From IMG/VR virus record IMGVR_UViG_2690316068_000002: a DNA stretch of 64,000 nt; one strand, given 5' to 3'. Position 1 is the first letter of the stretch. Each line of letters starts with the position of its first letter. Below are positions 1 to 60,692 of the stretch, piece after piece. Both the position numbers and the translations under genes were made by a program. The notes beneath the pieces were generated by a model, which worked only from the letters and a program-made list of their open reading frames with translations, had not been told where the DNA came from and searched no databases. The stretch is from a virus (lineage: Duplodnaviria; Heunggongvirae; Uroviricota; Caudoviricetes).

Positions 1-937
1 TGCCTTCCAGCATGGCAGGCCAGAACAGGCTGTGGAAGTAAACAATATCTTTACCGATGAAGTGGTACAGCTCGGCGGTGGAGTCTTTCTTCCAGTATTC
101 ATCGAAGCTGGTGGTATCGCCGCGCTTGTCGCACAGATTCTTGAAGGAACCCATGTAGCCAATCGGCGCGTCCAGCCAGACGTAGAAATATTTGCCCGGC
201 GCGTTCGGAATTTCAAAACCGAAGTAAGGCGCATCTCGGGAGATATCCCACTGTTGCAGGCCGGATTCAAACCATTCCTGCATTTTGTTCGCCACCTGCT
301 CCTGCAACGCGCCGCTGCGGGTCCATGCCTGCAACATTTCGCTGAAAGAAGGCAGATCAAAGAAGAAGTGTTCGGAATCACGCATTACCGGGGTAGCGCC
401 AGAAACCACCGATTTCGGCTCGATCAATTCAGTCGGGCTATATGTTGCGCCGCAGACTTCACAGTTATCGCCGTATTGATCTGGCGCTTTACATTTCGGG
501 CAGGTGCCTTTTACAAAACGATCCGGCAGGAACATGCCTTTTTCCGGGTCGTACAACTGAGAGATAGTGCGGTTTTTAATAAAACCGTTCTCTTTCAGGC
601 GAGTATAGATAAGCTCAGACAACTGACGGTTCTCTTCGCTGTGCGTCGAGTGATAGTTGTCATAGCTGATGTTAAAGCCTGCGAAATCAGTCTGGTGTTC
701 CTGACTCATTTCGCCAATCATCTGCTCCGGTGTGATACCAAGCTGCTGTGCTTTCAGCATGATCGGCGTACCGTGGGCATCGTCGGCACAGATGAAATTA
801 ACCTCGTGGCCGCGCATTCGCTGGTAACGAACCCAGACATCAGCCTGGATGTGCTCCAGCATATGGCCGAGGTGGATTGAGCCGTTAGCGTACGGCAGCG
901 CGCACGTCACCAGAATTTTCTTCGCGACTTGGGTCAT
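1..937 (-). CDS. metG: Methionyl-tRNA synthetase, N-terminal part (3' end runs off the window start)
   Basis: Reverse-complement translation from ATG at 937 reads [19 protein letters not shown]..., matching the enterobacterial MetG N-terminus as recalled. Plus-strand ORF 32..880 is its antisense shadow. Divergent from mrp as in Enterobacteriaceae. Confidence 0.9.
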
Positions 938-1094: not shown

Positions 1095-2195
1095 ATGAGC
1101 GAGTCCAAATCGCCGGATGCCCTGAGAGCAATGGTAGCCGGTACGCTGGCTAATTTTCAGCACCCAACCCTGAAACACAACCTGACTACGCTTAAAGCGT
1201 TACACCATGTTGCGTTGATGGATGACACACTGCATGTCGAACTAATCATGCCTTTCGTGTGGAATAAGCCTTTTGAAGACCTGAAAGAGCAATGTAATGG
1301 TGATCTGCTCCGTATCACTGGCGCAAAGGCTATTGACTGGAAGCTGTCGTACAACATTGCCACGCTTAAGCGCGTCAAAAACCAACCAGGTATTAATGGC
1401 GTTAAGAACATTATCGCCGTCAGCTCAGGCAAGGGCGGCGTGGGTAAATCCTCCACGGCGGTAAACCTGGCACTGGCGTTGGCTGCTGAAGGTGCGAAAG
1501 TTGGTATTTTGGATGCCGATATCTATGGTCCATCAATTCCAACCATGCTGGGCGCGGAAAACCAACGTCCAACCTCACCTGACGGTACTCACATGGCACC
1601 TATCATGTCTCATGGCCTGGCAACCAACTCTATTGGTTATCTGGTCACCGACGACAATGCAATGGTGTGGCGTGGACCGATGGCCAGCAAGGCGCTGATG
1701 CAGATGTTGCAGGAAACTCTATGGCCTGATCTGGACTATCTCGTTCTCGATATGCCGCCGGGCACTGGTGATATTCAGTTGACGCTGGCGCAGAACATTC
1801 CTGTAACTGGTGCGGTTGTGGTAACTACGCCGCAAGACATCGCGCTGATCGATGCGAAGAAAGGCATTGTGATGTTCGAAAAAGTCGAAGTGCCGGTACT
1901 GGGTATCGTCGAAAACATGAGTGTGCATATTTGCAGTAACTGCGGTCATCACGAGCCAATTTTTGGCACCGGTGGCGCACAGAAACTGGCCGAGAAATAC
2001 AACACGCAGTTGTTAGGCCAAATGCCACTTCATATCTCTCTTCGTGAAGATCTGGATAACGGAACACCAACCGTTATTAGTCGTCCAGATAGCGAATTTA
2101 CGGCTATTTATCGTGACCTCGCAGATCGCGTTGCTGCCCAAATGTATTGGCAAGGTGAAGTAATACCTGGCGAAATCGCATTCCGCGCAGTGTGA
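1095..2195 (+). CDS. mrp: Fe-S cluster carrier ATPase Mrp/ApbC
   Basis: 366 aa; P-loop SSGKGGVGKSS; near-identical over most of its length to E. coli Mrp as recalled, with a different N-terminus. GGAG Shine-Dalgarno upstream. Confidence 0.93.
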   Translation: MSESKSPDALRAMVAGTLANFQHPTLKHNLTTLKALHHVALMDDTLHVELIMPFVWNKPFEDLKEQCNGDLLRITGAKAIDWKLSYNIATLKRVKNQPGINGVKNIIAVSSGKGGVGKSSTAVNLALALAAEGAKVGILDADIYGPSIPTMLGAENQRPTSPDGTHMAPIMSHGLATNSIGYLVTDDNAMVWRGPMASKALMQMLQETLWPDLDYLVLDMPPGTGDIQLTLAQNIPVTGAVVVTTPQDIALIDAKKGIVMFEKVEVPVLGIVENMSVHICSNCGHHEPIFGTGGAQKLAEKYNTQLLGQMPLHISLREDLDNGTPTVISRPDSEFTAIYRDLADRVAAQMYWQGEVIPGEIAFRAV

Positions 2196-4430: not shown

Positions 4431-5080
4431 TCGTCATCCTCATCCGAGTCATCCTCATCAAAGGATGAGAGTAGTGGGTTAGTCATTCGCCCTACTTGAG
4501 TGGCGTAGCCACGCCGACAGAGATTGCGCAGCACACTGTATATTTCGAACATCTCGGTTCGTTCATCGCCAACATCAAGCTCAGATGCTATAGCGTGGCA
4601 TTCAGTCGCGAGAGCCGATATTTTCTGAAATAACTCTGCATTATTCACTGTTCGACTCCTGCGGCGTTCTGGTAGTGGCATCCAGTGTGTGACATTGCTA
4701 ATCAGACCATATTCATTAGTTTGAGGATGGTTGCCGTTATCGTCTCCGTATTTAAGACTCTCCATAAAGCCATAATGCCTATCACCATTAACGCTCACAA
4801 AGCCGTAATAAGCAGGTATAACGCCGATCTCACACGTAACCAGTAAAGGAAAACTAGTTCTCCAATTTAGCTCGCCAATTACAGGCATTCGCTCACTACA
4901 GCTTATCCAACCATCCTTAGATGCGGCTGTATTGGCATAGGCCTTACGGTGCTTCTGTAGCTCTGCTGCAATCGCTCTCACGACTTCAACTGGTGCCCTT
5001 GCAGCAAACTCAATGTTGGTGATCAGCTCATTAAGATATTTCTCGCTTGGGTAGCATTTCTTATTGTTAACGGTGGTCAT
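4427..5080 (-). CDS. Hypothetical phage protein, DUF551-like
   Basis: 217 aa; ...THWMPLPE motif reminiscent of DUF551; acidic C-terminal tail. Confidence 0.45.
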   Translation of the reverse strand: MTTVNNKKCYPSEKYLNELITNIEFAARAPVEVVRAIAAELQKHRKAYANTAASKDGWISCSERMPVIGELNWRTSFPLLVTCEIGVIPAYYGFVSVNGDRHYGFMESLKYGDDNGNHPQTNEYGLISNVTHWMPLPERRRSRTVNNAELFQKISALATECHAIASELDVGDERTEMFEIYSVLRNLCRRGYATQVGRMTNPLLSSFDEDDSDEDDE

Positions 5081-5265
5081 TAGGCAGCTCTCTCAACAAC
5101 AAGCAATTCGTCGTAGTCATAATCAGTTTCGGAACCATCCGTACCGAACAGAGTCACTTTGTCATTTTCCATCCAAAAAGATTTAACCGCACATTGTTGA
5201 CCTTTAGATGTTATGAGCACATCACCAGGGATTACGTCTTCAGCGCGAACCTCTAGTGTTCTCAT
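5080..5265 (-). CDS. Hypothetical small protein
   Basis: 61-aa ORF, coupled to neighbours. Confidence 0.4.
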   Translation of the reverse strand: MRTLEVRAEDVIPGDVLITSKGQQCAVKSFWMENDKVTLFGTDGSETDYDYDELLVVERAA

Positions 5266-5792
5266 CGTGCTGCCCCCTCTTTGGTGAAAATGCCTGCTGC
5301 AATGCTGTTTATGATGCTGTCAGTGCATGGAGTAGAAAGCTGGGCATCTCCAGCAATTTTCATGACCTCAACATCCGCATATCGAATACCGAGGTGTATC
5401 AGACCGGCTATACCTGACTTAAGTCGAACATTTTCCATAAACAGATCTTTTTCCCGCTGTTTAGCGGCTTCCAACTCCATCGACAATTTTTCCAACTGCT
5501 CTTTATGCTTCTTGTATTCCTGATACGCGTGCCAAGACTGACCTTTGCGCACACTATCAGCGATATCAGCAACCTGCTCTGGTGTTAGCGTGGTCAGTGG
5601 CTGTGATGGAAAAATCATCACTTGCCCGGCATCCCAATCAAAACCCGCCTGAATTGACTGAACCTCAACTGATGGTGTTGAACCGATGCGACCAGGCGAA
5701 TGAACAACGATCGTTACATCCATATCGCGACGATGGCTGTGGTTGTTGGACAAAATACGATTCACCAACTCAGAAAATTTGGATAATTTCAT
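5262..5792 (-). CDS. Hypothetical protein
   Basis: ORF-track 5262..5921 trimmed to internal ATG at 5792, which overlaps the upstream stop (ATGA). Confidence 0.45.
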
Positions 5793-6112
5793 GCTGATCT
5801 CTCTTTCTCTCCCCGGATAATTCTGTTGCACACATCCACACACTCGTCGCAGATGAAAACGGCGTCCCCAGCAATTAACTTTTTGACGGCGTACTGGGAT
5901 TTGTTGCAGAAGCTGCAACAAAGTGTTCGCCTGACTGATAAGGATGGAGCGCCAGATGTCAGCCGCTCCATATCGTTCTTGCGACGCAATATCACACGGC
6001 TGAACTCAACCAGTTTCTCCGGGGATATCTCCTCCTCCGTAGCGAGCGTCTCTAGTCGTTCGAGTATGTTGAAGGCTTTTTCTTGGGTAATAGCAGAGTG
6101 CGATGTGGTCAT
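5789..6112 (-). CDS. ClpX-type zinc-finger domain protein
   Basis: 107 aa; C-terminus [35 protein letters not shown] matches the ClpX N-terminal C4 zinc-binding domain pattern. Confidence 0.55.
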
Positions 6113-6510
6113 TTTCTTTCACCTTCAATGTTCGTGGCGCTGGCAAGATTGTCCTTGCGAAGAAGAGCGGCTATGCGCTTACTTCCATCCGAGATAACGC
6201 CCTCGTAATACTCACGCTGCTCGTTGAGTTTTGATTTTGCCAACTCCAGTTGTTTTGTTAGTTCCGCAATACGGCAAACATCGTTGATACGCGTTTCCTC
6301 TAATGCGTTGATCTCATCCAGTAGTGCCAGCACGGTTTCTGGTCCGGCCAGAAATTTGAAGGCGTTGAGGGCATCAATATCAACACCGCTATCTTTAAGT
6401 TCCTGTTCGCATATCAGATCATCATCAACTGGCAACATTAACAGGCGTTCCATTGCCGGAATTGCACGCTCTGCCGCCTCACGCAGTGCCTGATAGTCAA
6501 TCTTGCTCAC
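6109..6510 (-). CDS. Hypothetical protein, Ead/Ea22-like
   Basis: 133 aa; N-terminus [14 protein letters not shown]... resembles lambdoid early-region Ea22-like proteins. Confidence 0.4.
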
Positions 6511-7007
6511 TGGATGACTCCTTTACGAAGCTGTTCAGCAATACTTACGCATATCTCTGCGCCTCTAATCAGCCCCGGAACGTTCTTGTTTGGCCCAACT
6601 TCACCATCAACAAAATCAATCATCGCGTTACGAGCCATATCCACGCCCTGCGCACGTACTTCAGCCAGAAAAGCATCGGTGGCTGGAGTCTCCGTTAATT
6701 CGCTAACCCAATTATCTCCGTGTTCCTCGGCACACATCGCATCGAATGCTCGCTCAGATTCTTTCAGGGCTGCATTCTCCGCCGCTAATGCGTCTCTCTG
6801 CGCTCGCAACTTCTCAATTTCGGCAGCCATGTAGTAACCAACCATAGCGAAAGTGGCGAAAGGGTAGTCAGAATCATCAGGAGATACGGAGGCCATTAGC
6901 AGACCATCGTGCATGTTCTGGCTTCCATCAGTGATGGATACCGCATAAGAATCGCTGGTTTCCCGTTTATACAATACGACGACCGGGTTCTTGATTTTCT
7001 CTCTCAT
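6507..7007 (-). CDS. Hypothetical protein
   Basis: 166-aa ORF, coupled. Confidence 0.45.
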   Translation of the reverse strand: MREKIKNPVVVLYKRETSDSYAVSITDGSQNMHDGLLMASVSPDDSDYPFATFAMVGYYMAAEIEKLRAQRDALAAENAALKESERAFDAMCAEEHGDNWVSELTETPATDAFLAEVRAQGVDMARNAMIDFVDGEVGPNKNVPGLIRGAEICVSIAEQLRKGVIQ

Positions 7008-7561
7008 TACGATGCCTCTAACTTATCTAACTCTTTCAGCCCTTCACGTACCGCGTTCACAATGCGTTCCAGATACTGGTATTTCGGGTTTGGTACCGTT
7101 GGCCAGTCGGCATACCACGGATCATCACCAAAGAGATTCAGCAGTTTGTTACCGACGCCGAAACAACAGCAGCTTTCTTTTACGTCATCGGTGTTTTCCG
7201 CCTCGTCCCACATTTCACGAGCCAGTACGGCGTCGATTTCTCTCTCTCTTCGTAACTTTATGATTTCTGACTTCACGAAAAGCAGATTTGCATCGTTGTC
7301 ATCGTCGACCGTGCTTCGCAGTTGAGAGTCGAAATAGCCGATTAGATACTCGTTGCTGACCCGCTTAATGAACGTCTGCACATCATCACCGCCCATAGCA
7401 AACCAAGCCGCAGTCCACGCTTTTCCGTAGCAGATGATGGTGATTCTTCCCTTACCAGGTTCGTAGTTTTCAATCATCACTCGAACCGGATCGAGGCGTT
7501 CCAGATCCGTCAGCACAAAGGAAAGAACATCTATTTTTTCGACCTTCATGCAGCCTCCCAC
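7007..7561 (-). CDS. Hypothetical protein
   Basis: 184-aa ORF. Confidence 0.45.
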   Translation of the reverse strand: MGGCMKVEKIDVLSFVLTDLERLDPVRVMIENYEPGKGRITIICYGKAWTAAWFAMGGDDVQTFIKRVSNEYLIGYFDSQLRSTVDDDNDANLLFVKSEIIKLRREREIDAVLAREMWDEAENTDDVKESCCCFGVGNKLLNLFGDDPWYADWPTVPNPKYQYLERIVNAVREGLKELDKLEAS

Positions 7562-8187
7562 GCGCTCCAGATCAGCGATTTGTGTTTTTCATAACGTTTG
7601 ATGTGTACCGGTTTCAGAAGCGCAATACCTTCAGTGACTTTCGCCATTGCGCTTAATAGCAACGGGTGTTCTATACCTATCCTCTCCATGTACTCGACAA
7701 CATCAGCGTTGGCACCAATCTCTTTGCCGTGAAAGAGTACGTCCAGCATCAGTTCTTTCTCTGCGAGGTAGACAGCTGAAAACTCGGGATCGCGACTCAC
7801 GATAGAAGAGGTATTGTCGAGCAGGTCAGCCAGCTTGATCATGCGCGTCTGCATGTCGAGATTTTGCTCCAGCTCCCGGACATTGATGATGAAACGCTGT
7901 ATTCGATTGCCGTCTTCTGGCCTTGCAATGTTGGTCAGAGCCTGAACCATTTCAGCTACGCGCTCACCGAAGTGATCACGAACCATCTCTATGGTTACAT
8001 GGGTGTCTTCGACCACATCATGCAGAAGCGCCGCGATTTGCATCTCCACGGTTCCGTCATGCAATGCAACAATCTCTCGGACAGCAACCGGGTGGTTGAT
8101 GTAGTCTTCGCCGGTATATTTTCTTTTCTGACCAACGCCACCATGAGCGCCAGCGGCGAACATATGAGCTTCGGAAATACTAGACAT
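7546..8187 (-). CDS. HD-domain phosphohydrolase, SpoT/Mesh1-like (p)ppGpp hydrolase family
   Basis: 213 aa; HPVAV...AALLHDVVEDT HD motif aligns with the SpoT hydrolase domain. Confidence 0.6.
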   Translation of the reverse strand: MSSISEAHMFAAGAHGGVGQKRKYTGEDYINHPVAVREIVALHDGTVEMQIAALLHDVVEDTHVTIEMVRDHFGERVAEMVQALTNIARPEDGNRIQRFIINVRELEQNLDMQTRMIKLADLLDNTSSIVSRDPEFSAVYLAEKELMLDVLFHGKEIGANADVVEYMERIGIEHPLLLSAMAKVTEGIALLKPVHIKRYEKHKSLIWSAWEAA

Positions 8188-8255
8188 TCTTAACTCCGTT
8201 GTTTTCTAGTTGTGGTTATTTTCACAAATAAGAAAAGGTAGAAAACAATTTATTT

Positions 8256-8280
8256 AAGGCCACAACTTATGGCCTTTATT
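8256..8280. terminator. Terminator-like hairpin
   Basis: aaggcc-N-ggcctt stem with T-rich 3' flank on the plus strand. Confidence 0.3.
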
Positions 8281-8306
8281 TATTCATGCCGAAGGATTTG
8301 TAGCGT

Positions 8307-8687
8307 CTAATTGCCGGATAAAATGGGGTGAGGTGCTTGCCAGTAGGCTCCACCGGTCCATGTGAACCCCATGCGAATAAGAGTGTTTATTGCGGCTTTG
8401 GTAGACTCCGATTCGACACTGGCTTTTCGAAACTCTTGAACCTCTTTCGCCAACTTGTATGTAATTGTGCAGGGGACGATTGCAGCCCAGCCTTTCTCAT
8501 GACTGTTAATGACCATCTGGATGTGACCATCCAGAATAGGTTGATTAGGCATGTTATTGAAAATGTCTGCCTGTTTTTGAATGTGAAGAAAAAGCCTTGC
8601 CAGCTCCATTTGCTCACTACGAGACAAGGGATTATCAAGAGGGCTTTTTGCAAAAGCGGCTATACGCTGTGCGTCAATGCCAAACAT
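8307..8687 (-). CDS. Hypothetical protein
   Basis: 126-aa ORF. Confidence 0.45.
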   Translation of the reverse strand: MFGIDAQRIAAFAKSPLDNPLSRSEQMELARLFLHIQKQADIFNNMPNQPILDGHIQMVINSHEKGWAAIVPCTITYKLAKEVQEFRKASVESESTKAAINTLIRMGFTWTGGAYWQAPHPILSGN

Positions 8688-9391
8688 CAGCGCACCTCAC
8701 CATCTTTATGGCTGGAGTTAACTTCCGCCATTAAATGTCTGACGTAATCGACAAGAGAGCCACCTGGTGGAATCTGGCATTCCTCAACTAACTGGAAGTA
8801 GATATCCGCTGCATTACGTGTATTGCTACCCGCACATATTCTTTCTTCCCGAAGTGCATGAAGCTCGTTGATCAAACGGTCACACTCTCCGTTACGCTGA
8901 TCCACAACGGCCTCAAGCTCTGCGACGCGTTCACCTGGCGTCTTACCTTCTTTGCGTTGGATGGTAACGACGAAATCGCCAATTGCAGGGACGTTGTAAT
9001 CCAGCTCAAGGTAGTTTTTGGCACCGCTGCGGACGAACTCACCCGCGAACATGGTGGCGAACATCGCAGAGGCCACTTCGCCGTTGAAAAGTGACTCCAG
9101 ATCTAACGGAGTCCCGGCATCAAGAGCCTCTTTTGCTGTATCCATTGCATCCATGAACCGATCAAACTCATTGGCGCGCTTTTCCAGGTTTTTCCATTGC
9201 TCGCTCCAACGTTTGGCAACGAAGTCTATGAATGTTTTCGCGGATTCATCAAAATCCCCCTCAAACTTAACGATGCCTTTATCAATAATGATCTGGCCTA
9301 CCGCATCCTCTGCATAACCTTTCAATGTAAACTTGAAAGGAAAATCAGAATGGCCTGTGACGTTAAAATGCTCTAACTGGAGGTTGTTCAT
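8687..9391 (-). CDS. Hypothetical protein
   Basis: 234-aa ORF; stereotyped ribosome-binding context upstream. Confidence 0.5.
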   Translation of the reverse strand: MNNLQLEHFNVTGHSDFPFKFTLKGYAEDAVGQIIIDKGIVKFEGDFDESAKTFIDFVAKRWSEQWKNLEKRANEFDRFMDAMDTAKEALDAGTPLDLESLFNGEVASAMFATMFAGEFVRSGAKNYLELDYNVPAIGDFVVTIQRKEGKTPGERVAELEAVVDQRNGECDRLINELHALREERICAGSNTRNAADIYFQLVEECQIPPGGSLVDYVRHLMAEVNSSHKDGEVR

Positions 9392-9452
9392 GTGTTTTTC
9401 TCTTATCGTTTAGTAACTACATTCTTACACAAATTAGGTAAGTATTTACCTA

Positions 9453-11138
9453 TCATTTAACGCGTTTGAAAACGTATACGCTGACTGTGATCCCTGTGTC
9501 TTCAAACTCGTTGGTAAACGACTTCCCTCTGGCATAAACGTAATTATCCATCGTCATCCAGTCCAGTATTGGCGCAGTGCCCGGCAATACTGCTACAAGA
9601 CGCCCGCCGACTTTCAGATGCCCCAGCGCAGCCAGCGTGTGCTCTCTATGACGACCAAGCGAGTACGGCGGGTTCATAACGATTTTGTCGAACTGATAAC
9701 CTACGTTGTCCTCAGACCACTTTATGAAGTCGCAGCAAATCGTGTTCGTATACCCTTTTCCGCGCAGGATATCAGCGAAGAGAGGTGCGATTTCTATGCA
9801 GGTAACATCTTCCAGATCGGCGTTGATATAGGCCAGAAGATCCCCACGTCCGGCTTGAGGCTCCAGCAGCTTCTCACCAGACTTCAATTCAGTGGCTCTG
9901 GCAACGTACTCAGCAATCAAGCGTGGGGTAGGGTAGAACTGGTGTGATTTTGTATCCGGTATTAATCCGGTAGCCACAATCGTATTTAGCGTATGGCCGA
10001 TCTCATACGGGAACTGCCAGTGCTTTTTCTCCTGCACGCCGCCAATGAAGCTCAGTGTGCGCTCAAGCTCTTCCACCTGCGACTTCTGGAGAGCTGAATC
10101 AGAGAAGTACCATACGCCTTTGTCTTTGCTTAATCGCCCGTCACGAAGCGCAGTGCGAACCGGCACGGAGATCGTCTTCTGGATTAACCCGAACTGCTTT
10201 GGTGCCCGTGTTTTTGGCGCGGTGCGACATGGCGCGGGGATTGCAGCAGGCATACTGTAAGCCAGCACCTCATTCAACTTCCAGGCCACGTCAGGATGTA
10301 TTTCAAAGTGAACGTTGCCGTTCTTGAACATCTTCACGCGCATTAGATTTCCATCGACGTTCATCCAGTCACCGGTCTGGCAGTCGTTTGCCCGATACGC
10401 AGCTGATAGCACCTCAGCAGTGCGGTTGATGGTAATAAATTCTTTGTGCGCGAAGAAATGAAGCAAGACACGCAGATCGTCGATATAGTCCTCTTTGCGA
10501 TAGTTCACACTAACGCTGTCCCGCCAGAAATCAGAAATGCAGTCAGCGATTATCAGACGTTCGCTGAAACCGTTTGTCTTATTTGTCTTGTGCGCAGGAC
10601 TCAGCGCCTTAAACAAGCCATACACGCGCTCAGAGAGATATTTGTGCCTGTCATTCAGCAAATTAAGCATCGTGGGTATGACCGTTTCTGCTTTGAACTC
10701 CGGTACACCAACGAACTCTTTAACCTTCATCTGGTAGCCGGTTCTGTCAGTTTTGATGACTTCCTGTTTGCCCTCTATAAACTGCTCGCGCCACTCATCT
10801 CGACGGGAAGCTGGCATGATCAGCAAAACGTTAGTCATGTCCGTGACCTTCCTCCAGTACTCGGCCCAAATATTCTGTTTCACCCATTCCAGATCGACTT
10901 TATCCAACCAACCTCGATTTAAACGCGAGCGATCTTCATCTGGTCGATGGTTTAGTCTCAGCAGGCGATTAATCATGTTGTGGCGTTCGTCGCCATAAAC
11001 GAAGTCGTGTACCTGATACATGAAGGCGATCTCTTTCTCGCACTCGGCCACAATTTCGTGGATGACGTTCATTTCCTGCCGATAGTCGATAGCAGTGTTT
11101 GAGTTGGCATCGTCGATGATGGAAAGGGCTGTATTCAT
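9453..11138 (-). CDS. DNA methyltransferase (N6A/N4C class) with large N-terminal domain of unknown function
   Basis: 561 aa; C-terminal FYPTP...LEPQAGRG...VMNPPY motifs. Confidence 0.65.
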   Translation of the reverse strand: MNTALSIIDDANSNTAIDYRQEMNVIHEIVAECEKEIAFMYQVHDFVYGDERHNMINRLLRLNHRPDEDRSRLNRGWLDKVDLEWVKQNIWAEYWRKVTDMTNVLLIMPASRRDEWREQFIEGKQEVIKTDRTGYQMKVKEFVGVPEFKAETVIPTMLNLLNDRHKYLSERVYGLFKALSPAHKTNKTNGFSERLIIADCISDFWRDSVSVNYRKEDYIDDLRVLLHFFAHKEFITINRTAEVLSAAYRANDCQTGDWMNVDGNLMRVKMFKNGNVHFEIHPDVAWKLNEVLAYSMPAAIPAPCRTAPKTRAPKQFGLIQKTISVPVRTALRDGRLSKDKGVWYFSDSALQKSQVEELERTLSFIGGVQEKKHWQFPYEIGHTLNTIVATGLIPDTKSHQFYPTPRLIAEYVARATELKSGEKLLEPQAGRGDLLAYINADLEDVTCIEIAPLFADILRGKGYTNTICCDFIKWSEDNVGYQFDKIVMNPPYSLGRHREHTLAALGHLKVGGRLVAVLPGTAPILDWMTMDNYVYARGKSFTNEFEDTGITVSVYVFKRVK

Positions 11139-11179
11139 AATTGCACCATTAAGAAGTGATTTGTTTAATGGTGCAATTA
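11139..11179. promoter_or_regulatory. Perfect 14-bp inverted repeat abutting the methyltransferase start codon
   Basis: aattgcaccattaa-N13-ttaatggtgcaatt. Confidence 0.4.
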
Positions 11180-11241
11180 TTTCAAAAATGAAAAGGTACT
11201 AAATAGAAATAAACAGGCAATCCTTCAAATAAAGGCATTGG

Positions 11242-11856
11242 CTAATCATACTTGGAGGTATTTATCACCAGAATTTTGTTTGTATAAATCTTCTTAATAT
11301 CCCATGTGACATTACCGGAATACCATTGACCGTTATATACTTGGTTTCCAGTTGCACCTGTCATTGTTACATAGACAGGTCTGTCGTAATCGGTTCGTCT
11401 ATAGTTATATACCCCAACCATAGCAGGCATTACCGCACATGGATACCCCATATCTATTGTAAATTGAGGGTCAGAAATAGTGATAAGTTTCGCATCAAGG
11501 GGCATCATCTCACCGTGATACACCATTGCGCCTGCGCTGTTATACATGGCAATGCCATAGCCAGAATGTGGTAACACCATATCAGAAAAAGCATAAACTG
11601 TTATTGTTCCGGGGCTACCATTTACCTGATGCAATCTGAGAGCATTGTATCCGTTACTATGCTCATGAATAAACATCATGTTCGCCTTATTACTGCTTTT
11701 TATGAAGAAAAAGCATGATTTGTTTGATGGGATTGATGTTTGAAAAACAGAACCTTTAGATGTAGACATTGTCCCTTTATTAATCAGATTTTGCGGAGTA
11801 AATTCTGGACTCATCCACAAACTTCCATCTGATTGAGTAATTGACATCCCGAACAT
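11242..11856 (-). CDS. Hypothetical protein (low-GC cassette, gene 2)
   Basis: ORF-track 11242..11913 trimmed to ATG at 11856, 2 nt after the upstream stop; AT-rich. Confidence 0.35.
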   Translation of the reverse strand: MFGMSITQSDGSLWMSPEFTPQNLINKGTMSTSKGSVFQTSIPSNKSCFFFIKSSNKANMMFIHEHSNGYNALRLHQVNGSPGTITVYAFSDMVLPHSGYGIAMYNSAGAMVYHGEMMPLDAKLITISDPQFTIDMGYPCAVMPAMVGVYNYRRTDYDRPVYVTMTGATGNQVYNGQWYSGNVTWDIKKIYTNKILVINTSKYD

Positions 11857-11858
11857 AA

Positions 11859-12140
11859 TTATCCCCAGTATGTGTATATGTAAGAACCAAGCCCCGTATA
11901 TAAATTTGACCAACTAACCGTATTTCCATTAATAGTAACTGTTGGAACAGGTAAATTAATGTAGTTGTCGTTGTTAAGAGGCATCAATGACCACACGGCA
12001 TGTAGCGATTTACCCGGTGGCGGATTGGAGTACGTCTTAGAGCCTGATGACGCAGTAAATCGATCAAGAAAAAAAATAGGAGTAAGGAAGCCAGTAACGT
12101 TAATTCCTTTATTGTTGTAAATCCCTGTACCGTATGCCAT
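11859..12140 (-). CDS. Hypothetical protein (low-GC cassette, gene 1)
   Basis: 93 aa; AAGGA Shine-Dalgarno before ATG at 12140. Confidence 0.35.
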   Translation of the reverse strand: MAYGTGIYNNKGINVTGFLTPIFFLDRFTASSGSKTYSNPPPGKSLHAVWSLMPLNNDNYINLPVPTVTINGNTVSWSNLYTGLGSYIYTYWG

Positions 12141-12195
12141 TTTTCATCCTTGTTTTTTATCAACACAATATGGCCGATCATGCGGCCATATCAGA

Positions 12196-12765
12196 TCAAT
12201 TAGAGCTTTGAAAGGCTTTGTGTGGCTGTGTTGCGAGGTTATGTCGATGGCTTAACTCACGCATCATGTCTTCAAGCCGACTCTTTGTGTCGTCGAGTTG
12301 GTCGGCCATTGCTCCCAAAAGCTGACGAACGGCCATCGGATCATCGCTGTTTAGTGATGGCATTTTATAACCCGCCTGAGAAGACATAAGATTGAACGCA
12401 GACATCAACATCGTTAGAGAGGATGTAAGCCCAGCAATTTCACGATCTTTGCTGGCAATAATCGCCTCACTCTTGTTAGTGTCATCAGTTCGTTGAGTCT
12501 CGCTCACCATATCCAAAGTCGCCTGCAACTTATCAGCGCGCTCTTTTTCAGCAAGATAATGAACACCGAAATGATGTGCTAAAGCTACAACCTGAGTTGG
12601 CTCTTCAAAGGTGGACTCAAAATTAAGTGCTGTAACCACTCTCTCAAATATGGAAACGTCTTCTATTCCTCGAAGAATGGCTAACATTTTGACCAGTTCA
12701 TTAGCATCCATTTCTTCGAATAAGGCGTTTTGTTCATCAGCTATCGCTTTGCATTTCTTGCACAT
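12196..12765 (-). CDS. Hypothetical protein
   Basis: 189-aa ORF; conserved upstream motif and ribosome-binding context. Confidence 0.5.
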   Translation of the reverse strand: MCKKCKAIADEQNALFEEMDANELVKMLAILRGIEDVSIFERVVTALNFESTFEEPTQVVALAHHFGVHYLAEKERADKLQATLDMVSETQRTDDTNKSEAIIASKDREIAGLTSSLTMLMSAFNLMSSQAGYKMPSLNSDDPMAVRQLLGAMADQLDDTKSRLEDMMRELSHRHNLATQPHKAFQSSN

Positions 12766-30741: not shown

Positions 30742-30967
30742 GTGTTTTTCCTTTGTGGTTATTTTGATACAGATATTAAGTGTGTTTGAGAGGCGAACAA
30801 TCCAGATAACACGGCCATTAAGAATGTTCACAGACACATGATTATGGCAAATTCATAGGTAAGTGAATACCTATTTTTATGGGCAGCAAAGATTTCTAGA
30901 TGTTACAAGCCACTCTATAATCGCAGTCACTTAATGATGACAACCAAACGAAAAAGGAGAACTGACG

Positions 30968-31471
30968 GTGAAACGCGTAATTATAGGGACGATGGCCATT
31001 GCTCTGATCGGATGCGTACCAAAACCACCTCAAGATGAAAAGTCAGCTGGCGGGTACGTTGATATTTACTCCACTTCAAGCGTAGCAATTGCCCAAGACA
31101 GAGCCGACAAATTGTGTGGAAGCCATGCCTATTATGTCTCTAACGACAATGATTTAACCAAAGTCATGGGTAGATACGCGCCTTCATTCCCAAAAATCAG
31201 GTTCAACTGTGATCTTGAAATGGCCGCTTATCTGGGCAGCAAAGAGGCAAAGGAGATCAAAATGAAACGCATAGAGGAAGCCTACAAGGAGATGTACAAG
31301 GCCCAATATGAGCTGAAAGAAGTGCGCCGTAAGAACGCTGATCCGAAGAAGCTGGAGTCTTACACAGAACGCGATCCGGACGGTACTATTCGCAGCTACA
31401 GCTTCTTGAATGGCAAGTCGTGCGAATCAATCGTGTACCCAGACGGCACGGGCAAAACGACTTGTGATTAA
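30968..31471 (+). CDS. Lipoprotein (plus-strand moron)
   Basis: 167 aa; GTG start after AGGAG; signal peptide with lipobox LIGC; terminator follows. Confidence 0.6.
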   Translation: MKRVIIGTMAIALIGCVPKPPQDEKSAGGYVDIYSTSSVAIAQDRADKLCGSHAYYVSNDNDLTKVMGRYAPSFPKIRFNCDLEMAAYLGSKEAKEIKMKRIEEAYKEMYKAQYELKEVRRKNADPKKLESYTERDPDGTIRSYSFLNGKSCESIVYPDGTGKTTCD

Positions 31472-31480
31472 TTCTTCAGG

Positions 31481-31509
31481 AGCACCTCGTATGGGGTGCT
31501 TTTTATTTT
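31481..31509 (+). terminator. Rho-independent terminator
   Basis: agcacc-N-ggtgct stem followed by TTTTATTTT. Confidence 0.6.
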
Positions 31510-31942
31510 GGGTCGCGAAACAGCATGTCGGCCATTTGCGAGGATTTGACGTAGCACTTTGCCATCATCGGCTGACTAGGGTTTGATGCGATCATGTCGG
31601 ACACCAGCATTGACCCATAGCCTTTTCCGCGAAGCTCTTTGACAATACTGACGGCACGGAGTTCAAGTCAAGGTGCGCCAGTCGGATCGAGTGCGGCACA
31701 GAACCAGATTAGTCCTACTTTTTGTCATCAGAACGATGCAGCAGGATGTAGATAAAATGCCCGGAGTATTGGCCCCGCTCGTTCGTCTTGATTGCCAGTC
31801 TGGTCTGCTGCTCAAAGGTTTTACCCCCCCTTTGATGTGAGGATCTCTTCGTAGAAGTGACCTTTGCGTGCGCCGTCCTCGAACTCAGCCATGATAAAAG
31901 GCATGTCTGTCACAGTTGCTGCCCTTGAATAAAATTCACTCA
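31505..31942 (-). pseudogene. Disrupted GNAT-like acetyltransferase remnant with poly-C tract
   Basis: ATG at about 31942; frame breaks at a C7 homopolymer (about 31824-31830); downstream fragment carries LRGKGYG motif in another frame. Confidence 0.35.
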
Positions 31943-32018
31943 TGTATTAATCCTAAAAGCCCTCAGTGTCTTTCTAATGCACCATATTTTATGCCTCGGT
32001 TAAACCCTGAGATTACGT

Positions 32019-32663
32019 TTAAAACGTCTCAGTGGGCTTTTTACGCGCTGCGTTTATGCTTATGACGCCAGCTTTTGGACGTGGGTCAACAAGGTTAAGC
32101 TCTTCTTCACTGTGGTATTCGAGGTCGAACTCACGTTTTACATGTCTGATGTAGATTGCGGTGAGCAGGCTATCTTTGGTCAGAAAGTGTCCGTAGGATT
32201 TGCGGATCACTTCTTCTACCTTCTCGATTTTCTCACCACCCATACAGAGATGATTAAACCGGCTGTGTTTCCGCAACATTTCGTCTACTGGGCCTGAGTA
32301 AACCTTGTCTACTTTCCCAAAACGGATGATTTTCCCTGTGTCTGCGGATACGAGGCAAATCAGCTTGTCTGGTGATAAACGATCTCGCCACGTCACACCT
32401 GAACGGAGTGTGTTGAAGTAGGGAGCATCCAATCCGATGATCGGTTTACGAAATGCGAGTAATGGAACGTACCTGATGCAACTGTTTAAATGAAAATTCA
32501 CACCAGCCTTATCAAGTTTAATTCTGGTTTCGTAGATCGGGCACTTCGCCGCTATACCGCAGATGTCACAAAGCAACTTCTGCTTATTCAGGTTGGAATT
32601 CGATTCGATAGTGTAGGAGCCGTCTTCAAGACGACGAACCCAGCGCGTGCGTTTTAGATCCAT
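32019..32663 (-). CDS. Hypothetical protein
   Basis: 214-aa ORF divergent from the rep gene. Confidence 0.5.
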   Translation of the reverse strand: MDLKRTRWVRRLEDGSYTIESNSNLNKQKLLCDICGIAAKCPIYETRIKLDKAGVNFHLNSCIRYVPLLAFRKPIIGLDAPYFNTLRSGVTWRDRLSPDKLICLVSADTGKIIRFGKVDKVYSGPVDEMLRKHSRFNHLCMGGEKIEKVEEVIRKSYGHFLTKDSLLTAIYIRHVKREFDLEYHSEEELNLVDPRPKAGVISINAARKKPTETF

Positions 32664-42448: not shown

Positions 42449-42754
42449 TCTGTTCTCTGTAAAGGTGTCTGGCATCGTCTGGTTCGTTAACGTTTACTAA
42501 ACCAATGGTGACAAAAATTAGTTATCTTTGAAAAATAAAGGTTGCATGAAAAGAAGGGGTATGCGTTAATAGCATCGTTGGTTTGCAAGACAGACCTTAT
42601 GTAAGCAGTTTTAGTAAAGCAGTCTCAGTTCAGTGTTATCTTCTGATTTCCCTTCTTCGTGAGTCTCCTCCTTAAGTGCCTAAGTAAGTCCCAATCTATA
42701 CAGATCAAATTCTCGCCGCACTATGTGGCTCACAAAATTAAGAAGGTAATATCT

Positions 42755-42970
42755 ATGTCTAATAAAATGACTGGTTTAGTAAAATGGTTTAACTCTGATA
42801 AAGGCTTTGGCTTTATTTCTCCTGCTGATGGCAGTAAAGATGTTTTTGTACATTTTTCGGCAATTCAGAGTAATAATTTCCGCACTTTGGAAGAAGGCCA
42901 GCAGGTCGAATTCTCTATCGAGAATGGGGCTAAAGGCCCAGCAGCAGCAAATGTCGTTGCTCTAAGTTGA
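42755..42970 (+). CDS. Cold-shock protein, CspA family
   Basis: 71 aa from ATG 42755; [13 protein letters not shown]...[13 protein letters not shown]-track start 42659 lies in the long leader. Confidence 0.9.
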
Positions 42971-43245
42971 TTCAACGCTGATGATCCTCATTTCTACAAT
43001 AACGAAGACGGTGTAAGCCTGAGTGGATAGATTTGTAGGATTGTACAAGTTGAATAAATTAGCATGGTAAGGCCATGCTAATTAAATCGACACAACGGCC
43101 AGTTTATTCCATAAAAGTGAATTGCCCATTGTGGCGAAATGCGGGGTTGCCGCATGAATAGTCAAAGGCAGAAGCTAACTGCCGGCATGGCAAAACAAAG
43201 TGCGTAAGAGGAGTGACTTCCTCAACAAGCGCCATAATTCTTTAT

Positions 43246-54660: not shown

Positions 54661-54747
54661 TGGCGGAGAGTAATGGAATCGAACCATCATCGCTTGCGCA
54701 ATGGGACGGTTTTCAAGACCGCTTGAGCACCATGCTCCCTACTCTCC
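54661..54747 (-). tRNA. tRNA-Ser (anticodon UGA), type II
   Basis: Hand-folded: GGAGAGT/ACTCTCC acceptor, G discriminator, encoded CCA, anticodon loop CUUGAAA, long variable arm, TTCGATT T-loop. Confidence 0.75.
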
Positions 54748-54960
54748 AGTTGTTGTGGTGCCGGGGGCTTCCCGGTGTCCTTTGGCTGGTTATCCACCGT
54801 GGACGGAGCCAATAGTCATCACAAAGGATCAATATAACCATTTCCCCGCGTGCGCTTAGCCGCATTCACCACAACGAAAAGAGCACTGTATGACGTTTGC
54901 ACGGACTTACGCTTAAAACAGGGCAGTCTCGGCGGTTCTCAATGCTCTTTCCTGTTGTGT

Positions 54961-55036
54961 TGGTGCCGGTTAACGGATTCGAACCGCCGACCATTCGCTT
55001 ACAAGGCGACTGCTCTACCAACTGAGCTAAACCGGC
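54961..55036 (-). tRNA. tRNA-Thr (anticodon UGU)
   Basis: GCCGGTT/AACCGGC acceptor, encoded CCA, anticodon loop CUUGUAA, TTCGAAT T-loop. Confidence 0.75.
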
Positions 55037-55040
55037 AATT

Positions 55041-55127
55041 TGGTGGGGAGTGATGGAGTCGAACCACCCGAGTCGCAATGACAGTAGATTTACAGTCTAC
55101 ACCGCTACCTCTACGGACTAACTCCCC
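55041..55127 (-). tRNA. tRNA-Tyr (anticodon GUA), type II
   Basis: GGGGAGT/ACTCCCC acceptor, encoded CCA, anticodon stem-loop GACUGUAAAUC, long variable arm. Confidence 0.75.
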
Positions 55128-55132
55128 TAAAT

Positions 55133-55207
55133 TGGCGATGGTGGGTGGATTCGAACCACCGACCAGTTGGTTAACAGCCAACTGCTCTACCGCTGAGCTA
55201 CACCATC
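55133..55207 (-). tRNA. tRNA-Asn (anticodon GUU)
   Basis: GATGGTG/CACCATC acceptor, encoded CCA, anticodon loop CUGUUAA, TTCGAAT T-loop. Confidence 0.75.
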
Positions 55208-59435: not shown

Positions 59436-59510
59436 ACCAACTCCTAGCTAACAGATGAAAGTATTCTCACAGAAAGATAAGTAATCATCTACTTATTTTA
59501 AAGGTGATTG

Positions 59511-60692
59511 TTATGATAGAGCCTTAATGCCCAAAACCTTGCTTTGCAACTCCAACTGTTTGGTATACGGTTTTGCCCGATAATAGGCTTTGATAATTTG
59601 TTCTGGCGTTGCACCGCCCGGGTCGAGTCCTTCCTCACCCAAACACGCAACTTTGACATTAAGACCGATACTGGTCAGTCGCCTGGCTGCGGCCATAGTG
59701 TTGCGTATAGCTTGCTTTTCACTATCCCACATCATGATCACATTACGTAACCCACGCGCCTTGAGCGTCAGGAACGCGCCTAACTGATCTTCTGCATCCT
59801 GAGTGGTGTTACCAGATAGATGCATCCCGAACGTTCCTATTGGTTCCACGTAATCACGTAATGTTTCTTCGTCAAAAATAGCTCGTTTAACCCCCATAAC
59901 ATCGAACGCCCCCTCACAGACAACTACAGTCTGTTTGCCGACTGCATTATGGCCGTTGTAGAGAAACTTACCTGAAGCTGGAAGTTGCATAGGAAAGAGG
60001 TAGCGGCGTTCTGCTGTACCGGTAATGTCTCGTCCCTGAAATGTCTTCATTACCCCATCCAGATCGTAAACCGGTATCAGTATTCGCATATCGAATATCT
60101 GTCCTTTAACCTGATCTGTATACGGATCTACATAAGCGTGCTTGCCTTCGACGCAGTATCGTAGGTCAAAATACTTTGCCATTTCAGGTGATATGTTTCG
60201 TTCAACCAGATAGTCTGGAAGACGGCCATCTATAGGAAGTTCGTAATGACGAGGGAGTGCAAGTGGTCCCTCTAACTCGACTGTGCTTGCAAGCACTATC
60301 TCTTCTTTCTTTGGTGCCCACCCCTGGGAAAGAAGGGCGTTCTGCACATATTCCTCGAACTGTCGTCGTGATTTGCCGCTGTAGTGCTTGAGGAAGACCA
60401 GCTTATTGAACTGAATCTCTTCGGGATGATCACCAGCAAAGCATTTGCCGACGCCACTGGTCAGATTGAAATATACCTTCCAGTTGGAGCTGCCGCATAC
60501 CGGACATTCCTTGATATTCACTTCACGACCGCGAGCACTCACGCCTCCACGTCGATAAACGATACCTTCAGTATCCAACCATTGTTCAAAATCTAATTCG
60601 GCAATTAGCTCTTTCAGCTCGCTCACGATAATTCCACTTTTAACAGGCAATATTGTGACCAACCTAAATGTTGATATAACATAAAGGCTCAT
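59511..60692 (-). CDS. DNA primase (zinc ribbon + TOPRIM)
   Basis: Start moved to ATG 60692 with conserved ribosome-binding context; CPVCGSS...C zinc ribbon; VVVCEGAFDVMG TOPRIM. Confidence 0.8.
   Translation of the reverse strand: MSLYVISTFRLVTILPVKSGIIVSELKELIAELDFEQWLDTEGIVYRRGGVSARGREVNIKECPVCGSSNWKVYFNLTSGVGKCFAGDHPEEIQFNKLVFLKHYSGKSRRQFEEYVQNALLSQGWAPKKEEIVLASTVELEGPLALPRHYELPIDGRLPDYLVERNISPEMAKYFDLRYCVEGKHAYVDPYTDQVKGQIFDMRILIPVYDLDGVMKTFQGRDITGTAERRYLFPMQLPASGKFLYNGHNAVGKQTVVVCEGAFDVMGVKRAIFDEETLRDYVEPIGTFGMHLSGNTTQDAEDQLGAFLTLKARGLRNVIMMWDSEKQAIRNTMAAARRLTSIGLNVKVACLGEEGLDPGGATPEQIIKAYYRAKPYTKQLELQSKVLGIKALS

Follow-up and report, generated by a model that had tools for sequence, protein, structure and literature searches.

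A 64,000-nucleotide stretch of a Caudoviricetes genome (IMG/VR record IMGVR_UViG_2690316068_000002; this whole stretch is hereafter the window) carries a gene for a predicted RelA/SpoT-type hydrolase in an extended run of small, leftward-reading accessory genes. A sequence-only reading had described a 213-residue open reading frame (ORF) with the motif LLHDVVEDT, and had proposed that it encodes a SpoT/Mesh1-type hydrolase without a synthetase domain, that it lies on a phage-like element, and that its product could dampen the stringent response or counter alarmone-based immunity. The ORF is present as described, on the minus strand at 7546..8187, and its product includes AALLHDVVEDTHV, in which the motif lies. 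The window aligns as a whole to CP099286.1, a circular E. coli plasmid of 110,387 bp, at 93–99.6% identity in six blocks separated by short gaps, and positions 5000–12000 are 100% identical to it. CP099286.1, a relative of Salmonella phage SSU5, has genes for terminase, portal, major capsid, tape-measure and tail proteins, along with genes of the ParB type and genes for replication and nucleotide metabolism. This combination of virion genes, plasmid genes and kinship to SSU5 identifies the window, on sequence grounds, as part of an SSU5-like E. coli phage-plasmid of ~110 kb, which gives the phage-like element of the earlier reading a more precise identity.

Catalytic residues and fold of the hydrolase

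The protein matches Pfam HD_4 at E=1.2e-18 (67.8 bits, against a gathering cut-off of 27.2 bits; residues 8–135), Pfam HD at E=6.2e-06, and NCBIfam spoT_relA at E=1.4e-24, the last restricted to model positions 1–123 of 687 and thus to the hydrolase part alone. Sequence matches in the Protein Data Bank (PDB) include SpoT, Rel and MESH1 as well as small alarmone hydrolases (SAHs), with E-values down to 1.7e-13; the resemblance to RelA/SpoT-type hydrolase domains thus lies well outside what chance would give. The Pfam and NCBIfam scans found no synthetase, TGS or ACT domain in the 213-residue polypeptide, whose domains are HD_4 and HD only, and the protein thus has the single-domain layout that defines the SAH class.

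Across 80 aligned homologues, 25 positions are invariant, including H15, Q20, R22, Y24, Y29, H32, P33, H56 and D57, together with E60, D61, T62, R95, R98, K118, D121 and N125. Counted along the printed profile alignment with B. subtilis Rel, R22 corresponds to Rel R44, H32 to H53, H56 to H77, D57 to D78, E60 to E81, D61 to D82, K118 to K141, D121 to D144 and N125 to N148. The metal-binding His...His-Asp...Asp tetrad is complete (H32, H56, D57 and D121), and the catalytic Glu-Asp dyad E60-D61 is intact, as are the conserved R22 and N125; the catalytic and metal-binding roles named here are those established from the RelSeq structure.

An AlphaFold2 (AF2) model built on the homologue alignment is all-helical, with a pLDDT of 97 and a pTM of 0.92. 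In a Foldseek search of the PDB, the 42 matches at E<=0.001 consist entirely of MESH1, Rel/SpoT hydrolase domains and bacterial SAHs, and the same fold is predicted in many phage proteins, several of them of similar length (BFVD matches of 202–232 residues, with template modelling (TM) scores up to 0.76). The HD fold is therefore retained on structure prediction. The last ~35 residues, within the C-terminal helical region, are absent from shorter homologues of 165–180 residues. Together, the HD_4 match, the residues, the predicted fold and the confinement of the spoT_relA match to its hydrolase part bear out the earlier assignment: judged from its sequence and model, the protein is a stand-alone RelA/SpoT-type hydrolase with the complete catalytic set of RelA/SpoT homologues (RSH). 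With these residues in place, it is very probably an active SAH.

The SSU5 orthologue and a proposed role in counter-defence

SSU5 encodes a protein (SSU5_099; YP_006906731) that is 87% identical to that of the window in a gapless alignment over 213 of 213 residues. The two genes have the same length, share a 4-nt overlap with the same downstream gene, lie on the same side of a DUF4942 methyltransferase gene, and are carried by the same kind of element, SSU5 being a Salmonella phage-plasmid. Flanking genes are conserved between the window and SSU5, except that a different gene separates the methyltransferase from the SAH (SSU5 has an extra Eaa-like gene). Twenty of the 27 substitutions between the two proteins fall past residue 140, and the ratio of nonsynonymous to synonymous substitution rates (dN/dS) is 0.10 for residues 1–140, 0.30 for the C-terminal part and 0.19 for the whole gene, a value from which we conclude that the gene has been under purifying selection.

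Because SSU5 holds a single SAH-matching locus, we identify SSU5_099 with the published 'Salmonella phage SSU5 SAH (PaSpo)'. From the 87% identity to this protein, which its original authors classed as PaSpo, we infer that the window SAH belongs to the same subfamily. When co-expressed in E. coli, SSU5 PaSpo neutralizes five of five toxic small alarmone synthetases (toxSAS), namely CapRel, PhRel, PhRel2, FaRel and FaRel2 (Jimmy et al. 2020, PMC7229694), and the Discussion of the same paper suggests that an incoming phage could escape toxSAS defence by means of an alarmone hydrolase of its own. Leaky expression of PaSpo suffices against FaRel2, where the authors describe removal of the tRNA modification (bioRxiv 2024.07.05.602228). 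PaSpo has been used as a tool for the expression of CapRel-SJ46 (PMC9712102), and likewise for that of FaRel2 and PhRel2. Aminoacylation of pyrophosphorylated tRNA has been restored in vitro with MESH1 and with ATfaRel.

toxSAS such as CapRel are a recognized branch of bacterial anti-phage immunity, and a diffusible hydrolase that erases the toxSAS product would be an obvious viral escape route. We propose that the window protein is a metal-dependent SAH that would strip the 3'-pyrophosphate added by RSH synthetases, its likely substrates being (p)ppGpp, (p)ppApp and the pyrophosphorylated 3'-CCA end of tRNA. On a phage-plasmid that offers it no synthetase partner, it would most likely act in trans as a diffusible counter-defence against the products of host- or rival-element toxSAS, as in CapRel-type abortive infection, and translation and propagation of the element could then go on. 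From the catalytic residues and by analogy with SSU5 PaSpo, we lean towards an active metal-dependent 3'-pyrophosphohydrolase carried as a counter-measure against toxSAS abortive infection; that such counter-defence is also its main natural role is an even call. For this protein itself, we infer both the chemistry and the role in natural infection or lysogeny.

The suggestion that the protein could counter alarmone-based immunity thus gains support, by analogy, from an orthologue that neutralizes five toxSAS. The SSU5 orthologue and the hypothesized counter-immunity role are both already published, and no new principle is involved; what is new here is the accessory status of the gene, the purifying selection on it, its gain and loss together with a coupled gene, its repeated decay, and the lack of a synthetase on the element.

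Possible opponents are found among other phage-plasmids. According to a recent survey (bioRxiv 2025.09.12.675607), CapRel is common on E. coli P1-like phage-plasmids; the same survey used DefenseFinder and reported that anti-defence genes are few in the SSU5 group and absent from the S. enterica members of that group. A conflict between the P1-like and SSU5-like families is plausible.

Distribution, the coupled gene and alternative explanations

In a megablast survey of 5,426 complete E. coli genomes, in which divergent alleles would be missed, the full SAH gene was found in 36, always on plasmids, and chromosomal copies were found in none; an origin on the E. coli chromosome was rejected on this count. 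At least 26 E. coli plasmids carry the gene at >=99% identity. In PLSDB it occurs on plasmids of ~104–117 kb from Klebsiella, Escherichia, Enterobacter, Salmonella and Citrobacter, including 106.7-kb Salmonella plasmids with the SAH at 87% identity. The DUF4942 methyltransferase gene is present in 187 of the E. coli genomes, compared with the 36 that have the SAH.

Loss and decay of the gene have taken several forms. In eight further complete E. coli genomes, all that is left of the SAH gene is a 43-bp 5' stub. On pM160133_p3 (NZ_CP022167.1; L006 4871–5043), an IS1 remnant and a metG-apbC gene pair abut this stub, which equals window positions 8145–8187, and the SAH has been deleted along with ~6 kb of downstream accessory genes. 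One degenerate relative (P0009) has HG for HD together with H15Y, Q20K and R95S. Two chimeras have other N-termini in place of the catalytic N-terminal half, joined to the remainder of the SAH, a P-loop (AAA_28) N-terminus to residues from ~60 on (P0010) and the N-terminus of the upstream 234-residue gene to residues from ~75 on (P0012). A truncated form that ends at residue 139 (P0011) is found on 139 contigs, and Enterobacter forms are truncated at ~114 residues. This patchy presence and repeated inactivation fit a conditionally useful accessory gene, and an accessory, patchy and repeatedly decaying distribution is likewise compatible with a gene engaged in an arms race.

Several observations weigh against the counter-defence role proposed above. 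With the methyltransferase as a marker, about one fifth of E. coli SSU5-like elements appear to keep the SAH, and this retention, together with the inactivated alleles in several relatives, indicates that the gene is dispensable. All neutralization data for PaSpo were obtained by co-expression from plasmids, and none during phage infection or carriage of a phage-plasmid, and the tRNA-repair chemistry was demonstrated with MESH1 and ATfaRel rather than with PaSpo. In the toxSAS literature we found no in-vitro assay of the SSU5 SAH or of this protein, and no published test of whether an SAH is required in a host with native toxSAS, a requirement that has only been proposed (PMC7229694, Discussion). 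Finally, a distant phage SAH adjoins a gene of the TraR/DksA type, a hint of stringent-response manipulation that is taken up below.

The SAH gene is followed by a gene for a 180-residue protein, and the ATGA overlap between the two indicates translational coupling. In pAVS0223-B (NZ_CP124417.1), 47 unrelated bases stand in place of window positions 7008–8215, between flanks that are 97–99.5% identical; given this exact joint replacement, the SAH and the 180-residue gene behave as one cassette in that comparison. In other genomes the two genes are found apart. Among 80 viral loci that encode the partner, 59 lack an SAH, and homologues of the partner are present on Mb-size contigs from several genera of enterobacteria, whereas this SAH is on no E. 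coli chromosome. Klebsiella SSU5-like elements carry a 52%-identical SAH directly upstream of the DUF4942 methyltransferase gene, without the partner. The AF2 model of the 180-residue protein has a pLDDT of 91, and the protein has no significant PDB fold match in Foldseek, no PADLOC match and no match in local Pfam or NCBIfam scans. An obligate partner or toxin encoded by this gene was rejected, as the gene is widespread without an SAH, the Klebsiella SAH occurs without it, and family, PADLOC and fold searches gave no match; a loose functional link between the two genes is possible.

Partner homologues of ~30–40% identity are also found in lytic phages. One of them, in Vibrio phage 1.170.O (L014 1780–5083), overlaps the end of a gene for a Thg1-like tRNA-His guanylyltransferase (Pfam Thg1, 8.9e-28) and lies two genes upstream of an enzyme with PolyA_pol-head and HD domains, of the CCA-adding type. 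The homologue of Vibrio phage 1.121.O has genes for tRNA-Thr and tRNA-Gly within ~1.6 kb (L015 347–2540). The neighbours in four other phages are uninformative, being mostly hypothetical with the exception of an ATP-dependent ligase in PH357. The partner family may be linked to tRNA repair, through gene neighbourhoods that are too thin for a function to be assigned. A second, independent co-location of the SAH and partner families was found on a lambdoid-type viral contig (L075 5001–6586), which encodes, in order, the partner, a DUF1382 protein, a TraR/DksA-type zinc-finger protein and a 184-residue SAH that is 37% identical to that of the window (HD_4 at 2.3e-11).

A narrower form of the counter-defence reading is that the SAH would in nature chiefly repair tRNA 3' ends instead of hydrolysing alarmones, perhaps with its phiTE_072-family partner and the tRNAs of the element, and so help SSU5-like phage-plasmids to withstand the tRNA-pyrophosphorylating, CapRel-type immunity of rival P1-like phage-plasmids of the same Enterobacteriaceae. 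We put this forward tentatively, because CapRel is carried by P1-like phage-plasmids, the SSU5 orthologue neutralizes CapRel, and the gene neighbours in phage 1.170.O offer hints in the same direction.

Among the rival explanations, manipulation of the stringent response survives best. Here host (p)ppGpp would be the main substrate, lowered in favour of lytic growth or plasmid replication, with rRNA and protein synthesis and nucleotide pools kept high independently of toxSAS immunity. The catalytic set is that by which Rel, SpoT and MESH1 hydrolyse (p)ppGpp, and the window is rich in genes of nucleotide metabolism and replication (nrdAB, thymidylate synthase, DHFR and DnaE), as would fit metabolic reprogramming. 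On the unrelated lambdoid-type contig, the 37%-identical SAH directly follows the TraR/DksA-type zinc-finger gene, and proteins of this class act on RNA polymerase in the ppGpp pathway. However, E. coli already possesses SpoT, we found no measurement of alarmone pools for this protein or its orthologue in the literature, and the orthologue has a single published phenotype, the neutralization of toxSAS, including those that modify tRNA instead of making alarmones. We therefore regard the stringent response as a distinctly less probable main target, although the two roles are not mutually exclusive.

It is improbable that the protein is instead a MESH1-like phosphatase of other, non-alarmone nucleotides phosphorylated at the 3' or 2' position, such as NADPH or PAPS, with alarmone or tRNA hydrolysis as a side activity. 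The top Foldseek matches in the PDB are human MESH1 with PAPS (9chy) and with NADPH (5vxa), at E ~1e-06, MESH1 is cited as an NADPH phosphatase, and promiscuity of SAHs is reported (PMC9765508). The identity to MESH1 is just 26%, however, the orthologue is known for toxSAS neutralization, and the phage-plasmid context contains no pointer to NADPH or sulfur metabolism.

The ATGA overlap is reminiscent of toxin-antitoxin operons, and the joint gain or loss of both genes in the pAVS0223-B comparison could likewise suggest that the SAH is a type IV antitoxin, with the 180-residue protein as the toxin of an element-borne toxSAS module, in the manner of ATfaRel and FaRel. This protein has no match to RelA_SpoT or any other family in a local Pfam scan, no PADLOC match and no significant match to a PDB fold; the 59 of 80 partner loci without an SAH, the Klebsiella SAH located elsewhere without the partner, and the occurrence of partner homologues on Mb-size enterobacterial contigs when the SAH is on no E. 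coli chromosome all speak against such a pairing. Pfam searches found no RelA_SpoT synthetase in eight neighbouring proteins or in 20 further unannotated window proteins, and the annotation of the whole plasmid CP099286.1 lists no synthetase product. With no synthetase found on the element by these searches, an antitoxin of an element-borne toxSAS was rejected, and we consider it highly unlikely.

Just as unlikely is a functionless, decaying passenger gene: the HD-to-HG allele, chimeras, truncations, whole-cassette deletion and IS1-associated deletion show such decay in relatives, but the window allele is full-length, keeps its invariant residues, has a dN/dS of 0.19 and recurs at >=99% identity on at least 26 E. 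coli plasmids, so that a pseudogene or inactive enzyme was rejected for this allele while being true of some relatives.

The surrounding element and comparison with known hydrolases

A promoter scan of positions 4500–12500 found no minus-strand sigma-70-like site near the SAH gene, which is probably transcribed as part of an extended leftward operon. A hairpin similar to the inverted repeat upstream of the cassette (Table 1) is also present in SSU5. The DUF4942 methyltransferase appears to be an orphan methylase conserved beside the SAH region, and relatives of ~30% identity are found on plasmids of 240–310 kb. The N-terminal ~100 residues of the upstream 234-residue protein match the N-terminal part of phrog_3451, and the C-terminal part of the same profile corresponds to the 180-residue partner; since the two proteins match different parts of one profile, we conclude that an N-terminal module has been shuffled among the genes of this region.

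Table 1. Features of the SAH locus and of the remainder of the window.
Feature	Position	Strand	Basis or remark
SAH coding sequence, 213 aa, orthologue of SSU5_099 / PaSpo	7546..8187	-	ATG-to-TGA ORF, Pfam HD_4, AF2, Foldseek
Codons of H56-D57-V-V-E60-D61, HDxxED catalytic motif	8005..8022	-	sequence; 80-homologue alignment; Rel alignment
Codons of R22 to H32 (RKYTGEDYINH), substrate-binding Arg and first metal-binding His	8092..8124	-	invariance; Rel alignment
Codons of D121 to N125 (DLLDN), fourth metal ligand and conserved Asn	7813..7827	-	invariance; Rel alignment
C-terminal helical region, ~residues 141-213	7546..7767	-	AF2 helices 161-170, 175-189, 193-212
GGAG Shine-Dalgarno	8194..8197	-	6 nt 5' of SAH ATG (8187..8185); sequence inspection
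ATGA 4-nt overlap, SAH TGA / downstream-gene ATG	7546..7549	-	sequence; CP099286.1 annotated start; SSU5
Coupled 180-aa gene, 'phiTE_072 family' (RefSeq)	7007..7549	-	phrog_3451 at 2.7e-90; PF26211 on homologues
Two-gene cassette: SAH, 180-aa gene and 28 nt leader	7008..8215	-	absent as unit in pAVS0223-B
Inverted repeat AAGGCCACAACTTATGGCCTT, intergenic between upstream 126-aa gene and SAH, outside cassette	8256..8276	.	terminator-like match
234-aa protein	8687..9391	-	N-terminal match to phrog_3451
561-aa protein, DUF4942 and C-terminal SAM-dependent DNA methyltransferase	9453..11138	-	phrog_6263; PADLOC mad2, type II MTase
metG (methionine-tRNA ligase, cut by window start), chromosomal-type	1..937	-	
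apbC, paired with metG, chromosomal-type	1095..2195	+	
cspA thermoregulator RNA	42577..42994	+	full-length Rfam RF01766 match, 187 bits
Four-tRNA array Ser(tga), Thr(tgt), Tyr(gta), Asn(gtt)	54661..55207	-	

The metG-apbC pair shares only ~88% identity with the copy on the E. coli chromosome but is found at >=95% in ~218 records. Its 236 plasmid places among the 5,426 E. coli genomes make it almost universal among the SSU5-like elements of E. coli, and its origin probably lies in a different enterobacterium. The element also carries a four-tRNA array; tRNA-Gly and tRNA-Thr are the reported targets of FaRel2. The match to RF01766 is presumably the 5' UTR of a CspG-like cold-shock gene annotated on the reference plasmid. 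Two segments of the window, 30772..32028 and 59497..59564, have no counterpart in CP099286.1, the sequence elsewhere being 97–99.6% identical: near 31 kb the extra sequence includes a 159-residue ORF with no Pfam match, and near 59.5 kb of the window the sel1-repeat gene region of the reference is replaced.

Clinical E. coli, Shigella, Salmonella Typhi (pHCM2) and Klebsiella commonly carry SSU5-like elements, and the SSU5 enzyme has become the standard reagent of the field for taming toxSAS. The SAH goes uncounted in DefenseFinder-based surveys of phage-plasmids and is not listed in current anti-defence catalogues. Its patchy presence could mark lineages that face toxSAS-bearing competitors.

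Comparison with known hydrolases places the window SAH, beyond its SSU5 orthologue, among enzymes that share its fold or predicted activity at much greater distance. ATfaRel is a single-domain RSH hydrolase that neutralizes all tested toxSAS in a manner dependent on an active-site Asp; it belongs to a different SAH subfamily according to its authors and is encoded beside its toxSAS, whereas the window SAH has no synthetase neighbour. Human and Drosophila MESH1 have the same fold and catalytic residues, provide the best Foldseek matches in the PDB, neutralize toxSAS and repair pyrophosphorylated tRNA in vitro, yet these eukaryotic proteins of ~180 residues are 26% identical to the window protein, lack its last C-terminal helices and have a role as NADPH phosphatases. 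The P. aeruginosa SAH (6yvc/6z3n), C. glutamicum RelH (7qod) and the Bacteroides caccae (p)ppApp hydrolase (7smg) are likewise stand-alone proteins of the same fold (target-normalized TM 0.63–0.77; 21–32% identity), but are chromosomal housekeeping or self-protection enzymes, more distant by sequence from the window SAH than are the hydrolase domains of long Rel/SpoT proteins. SAH matches were found in 249 phage records, and the SAHs of lytic and jumbo phages (phiKZ PHIKZ246, Erwinia and Dickeya jumbo phages, E. coli PDP46 and PJ16) are also stand-alone HD_4 proteins, with BFVD TM scores to 0.76, though they are <=50% identical to the window SAH, mostly shorter, and encoded in unrelated genomes.

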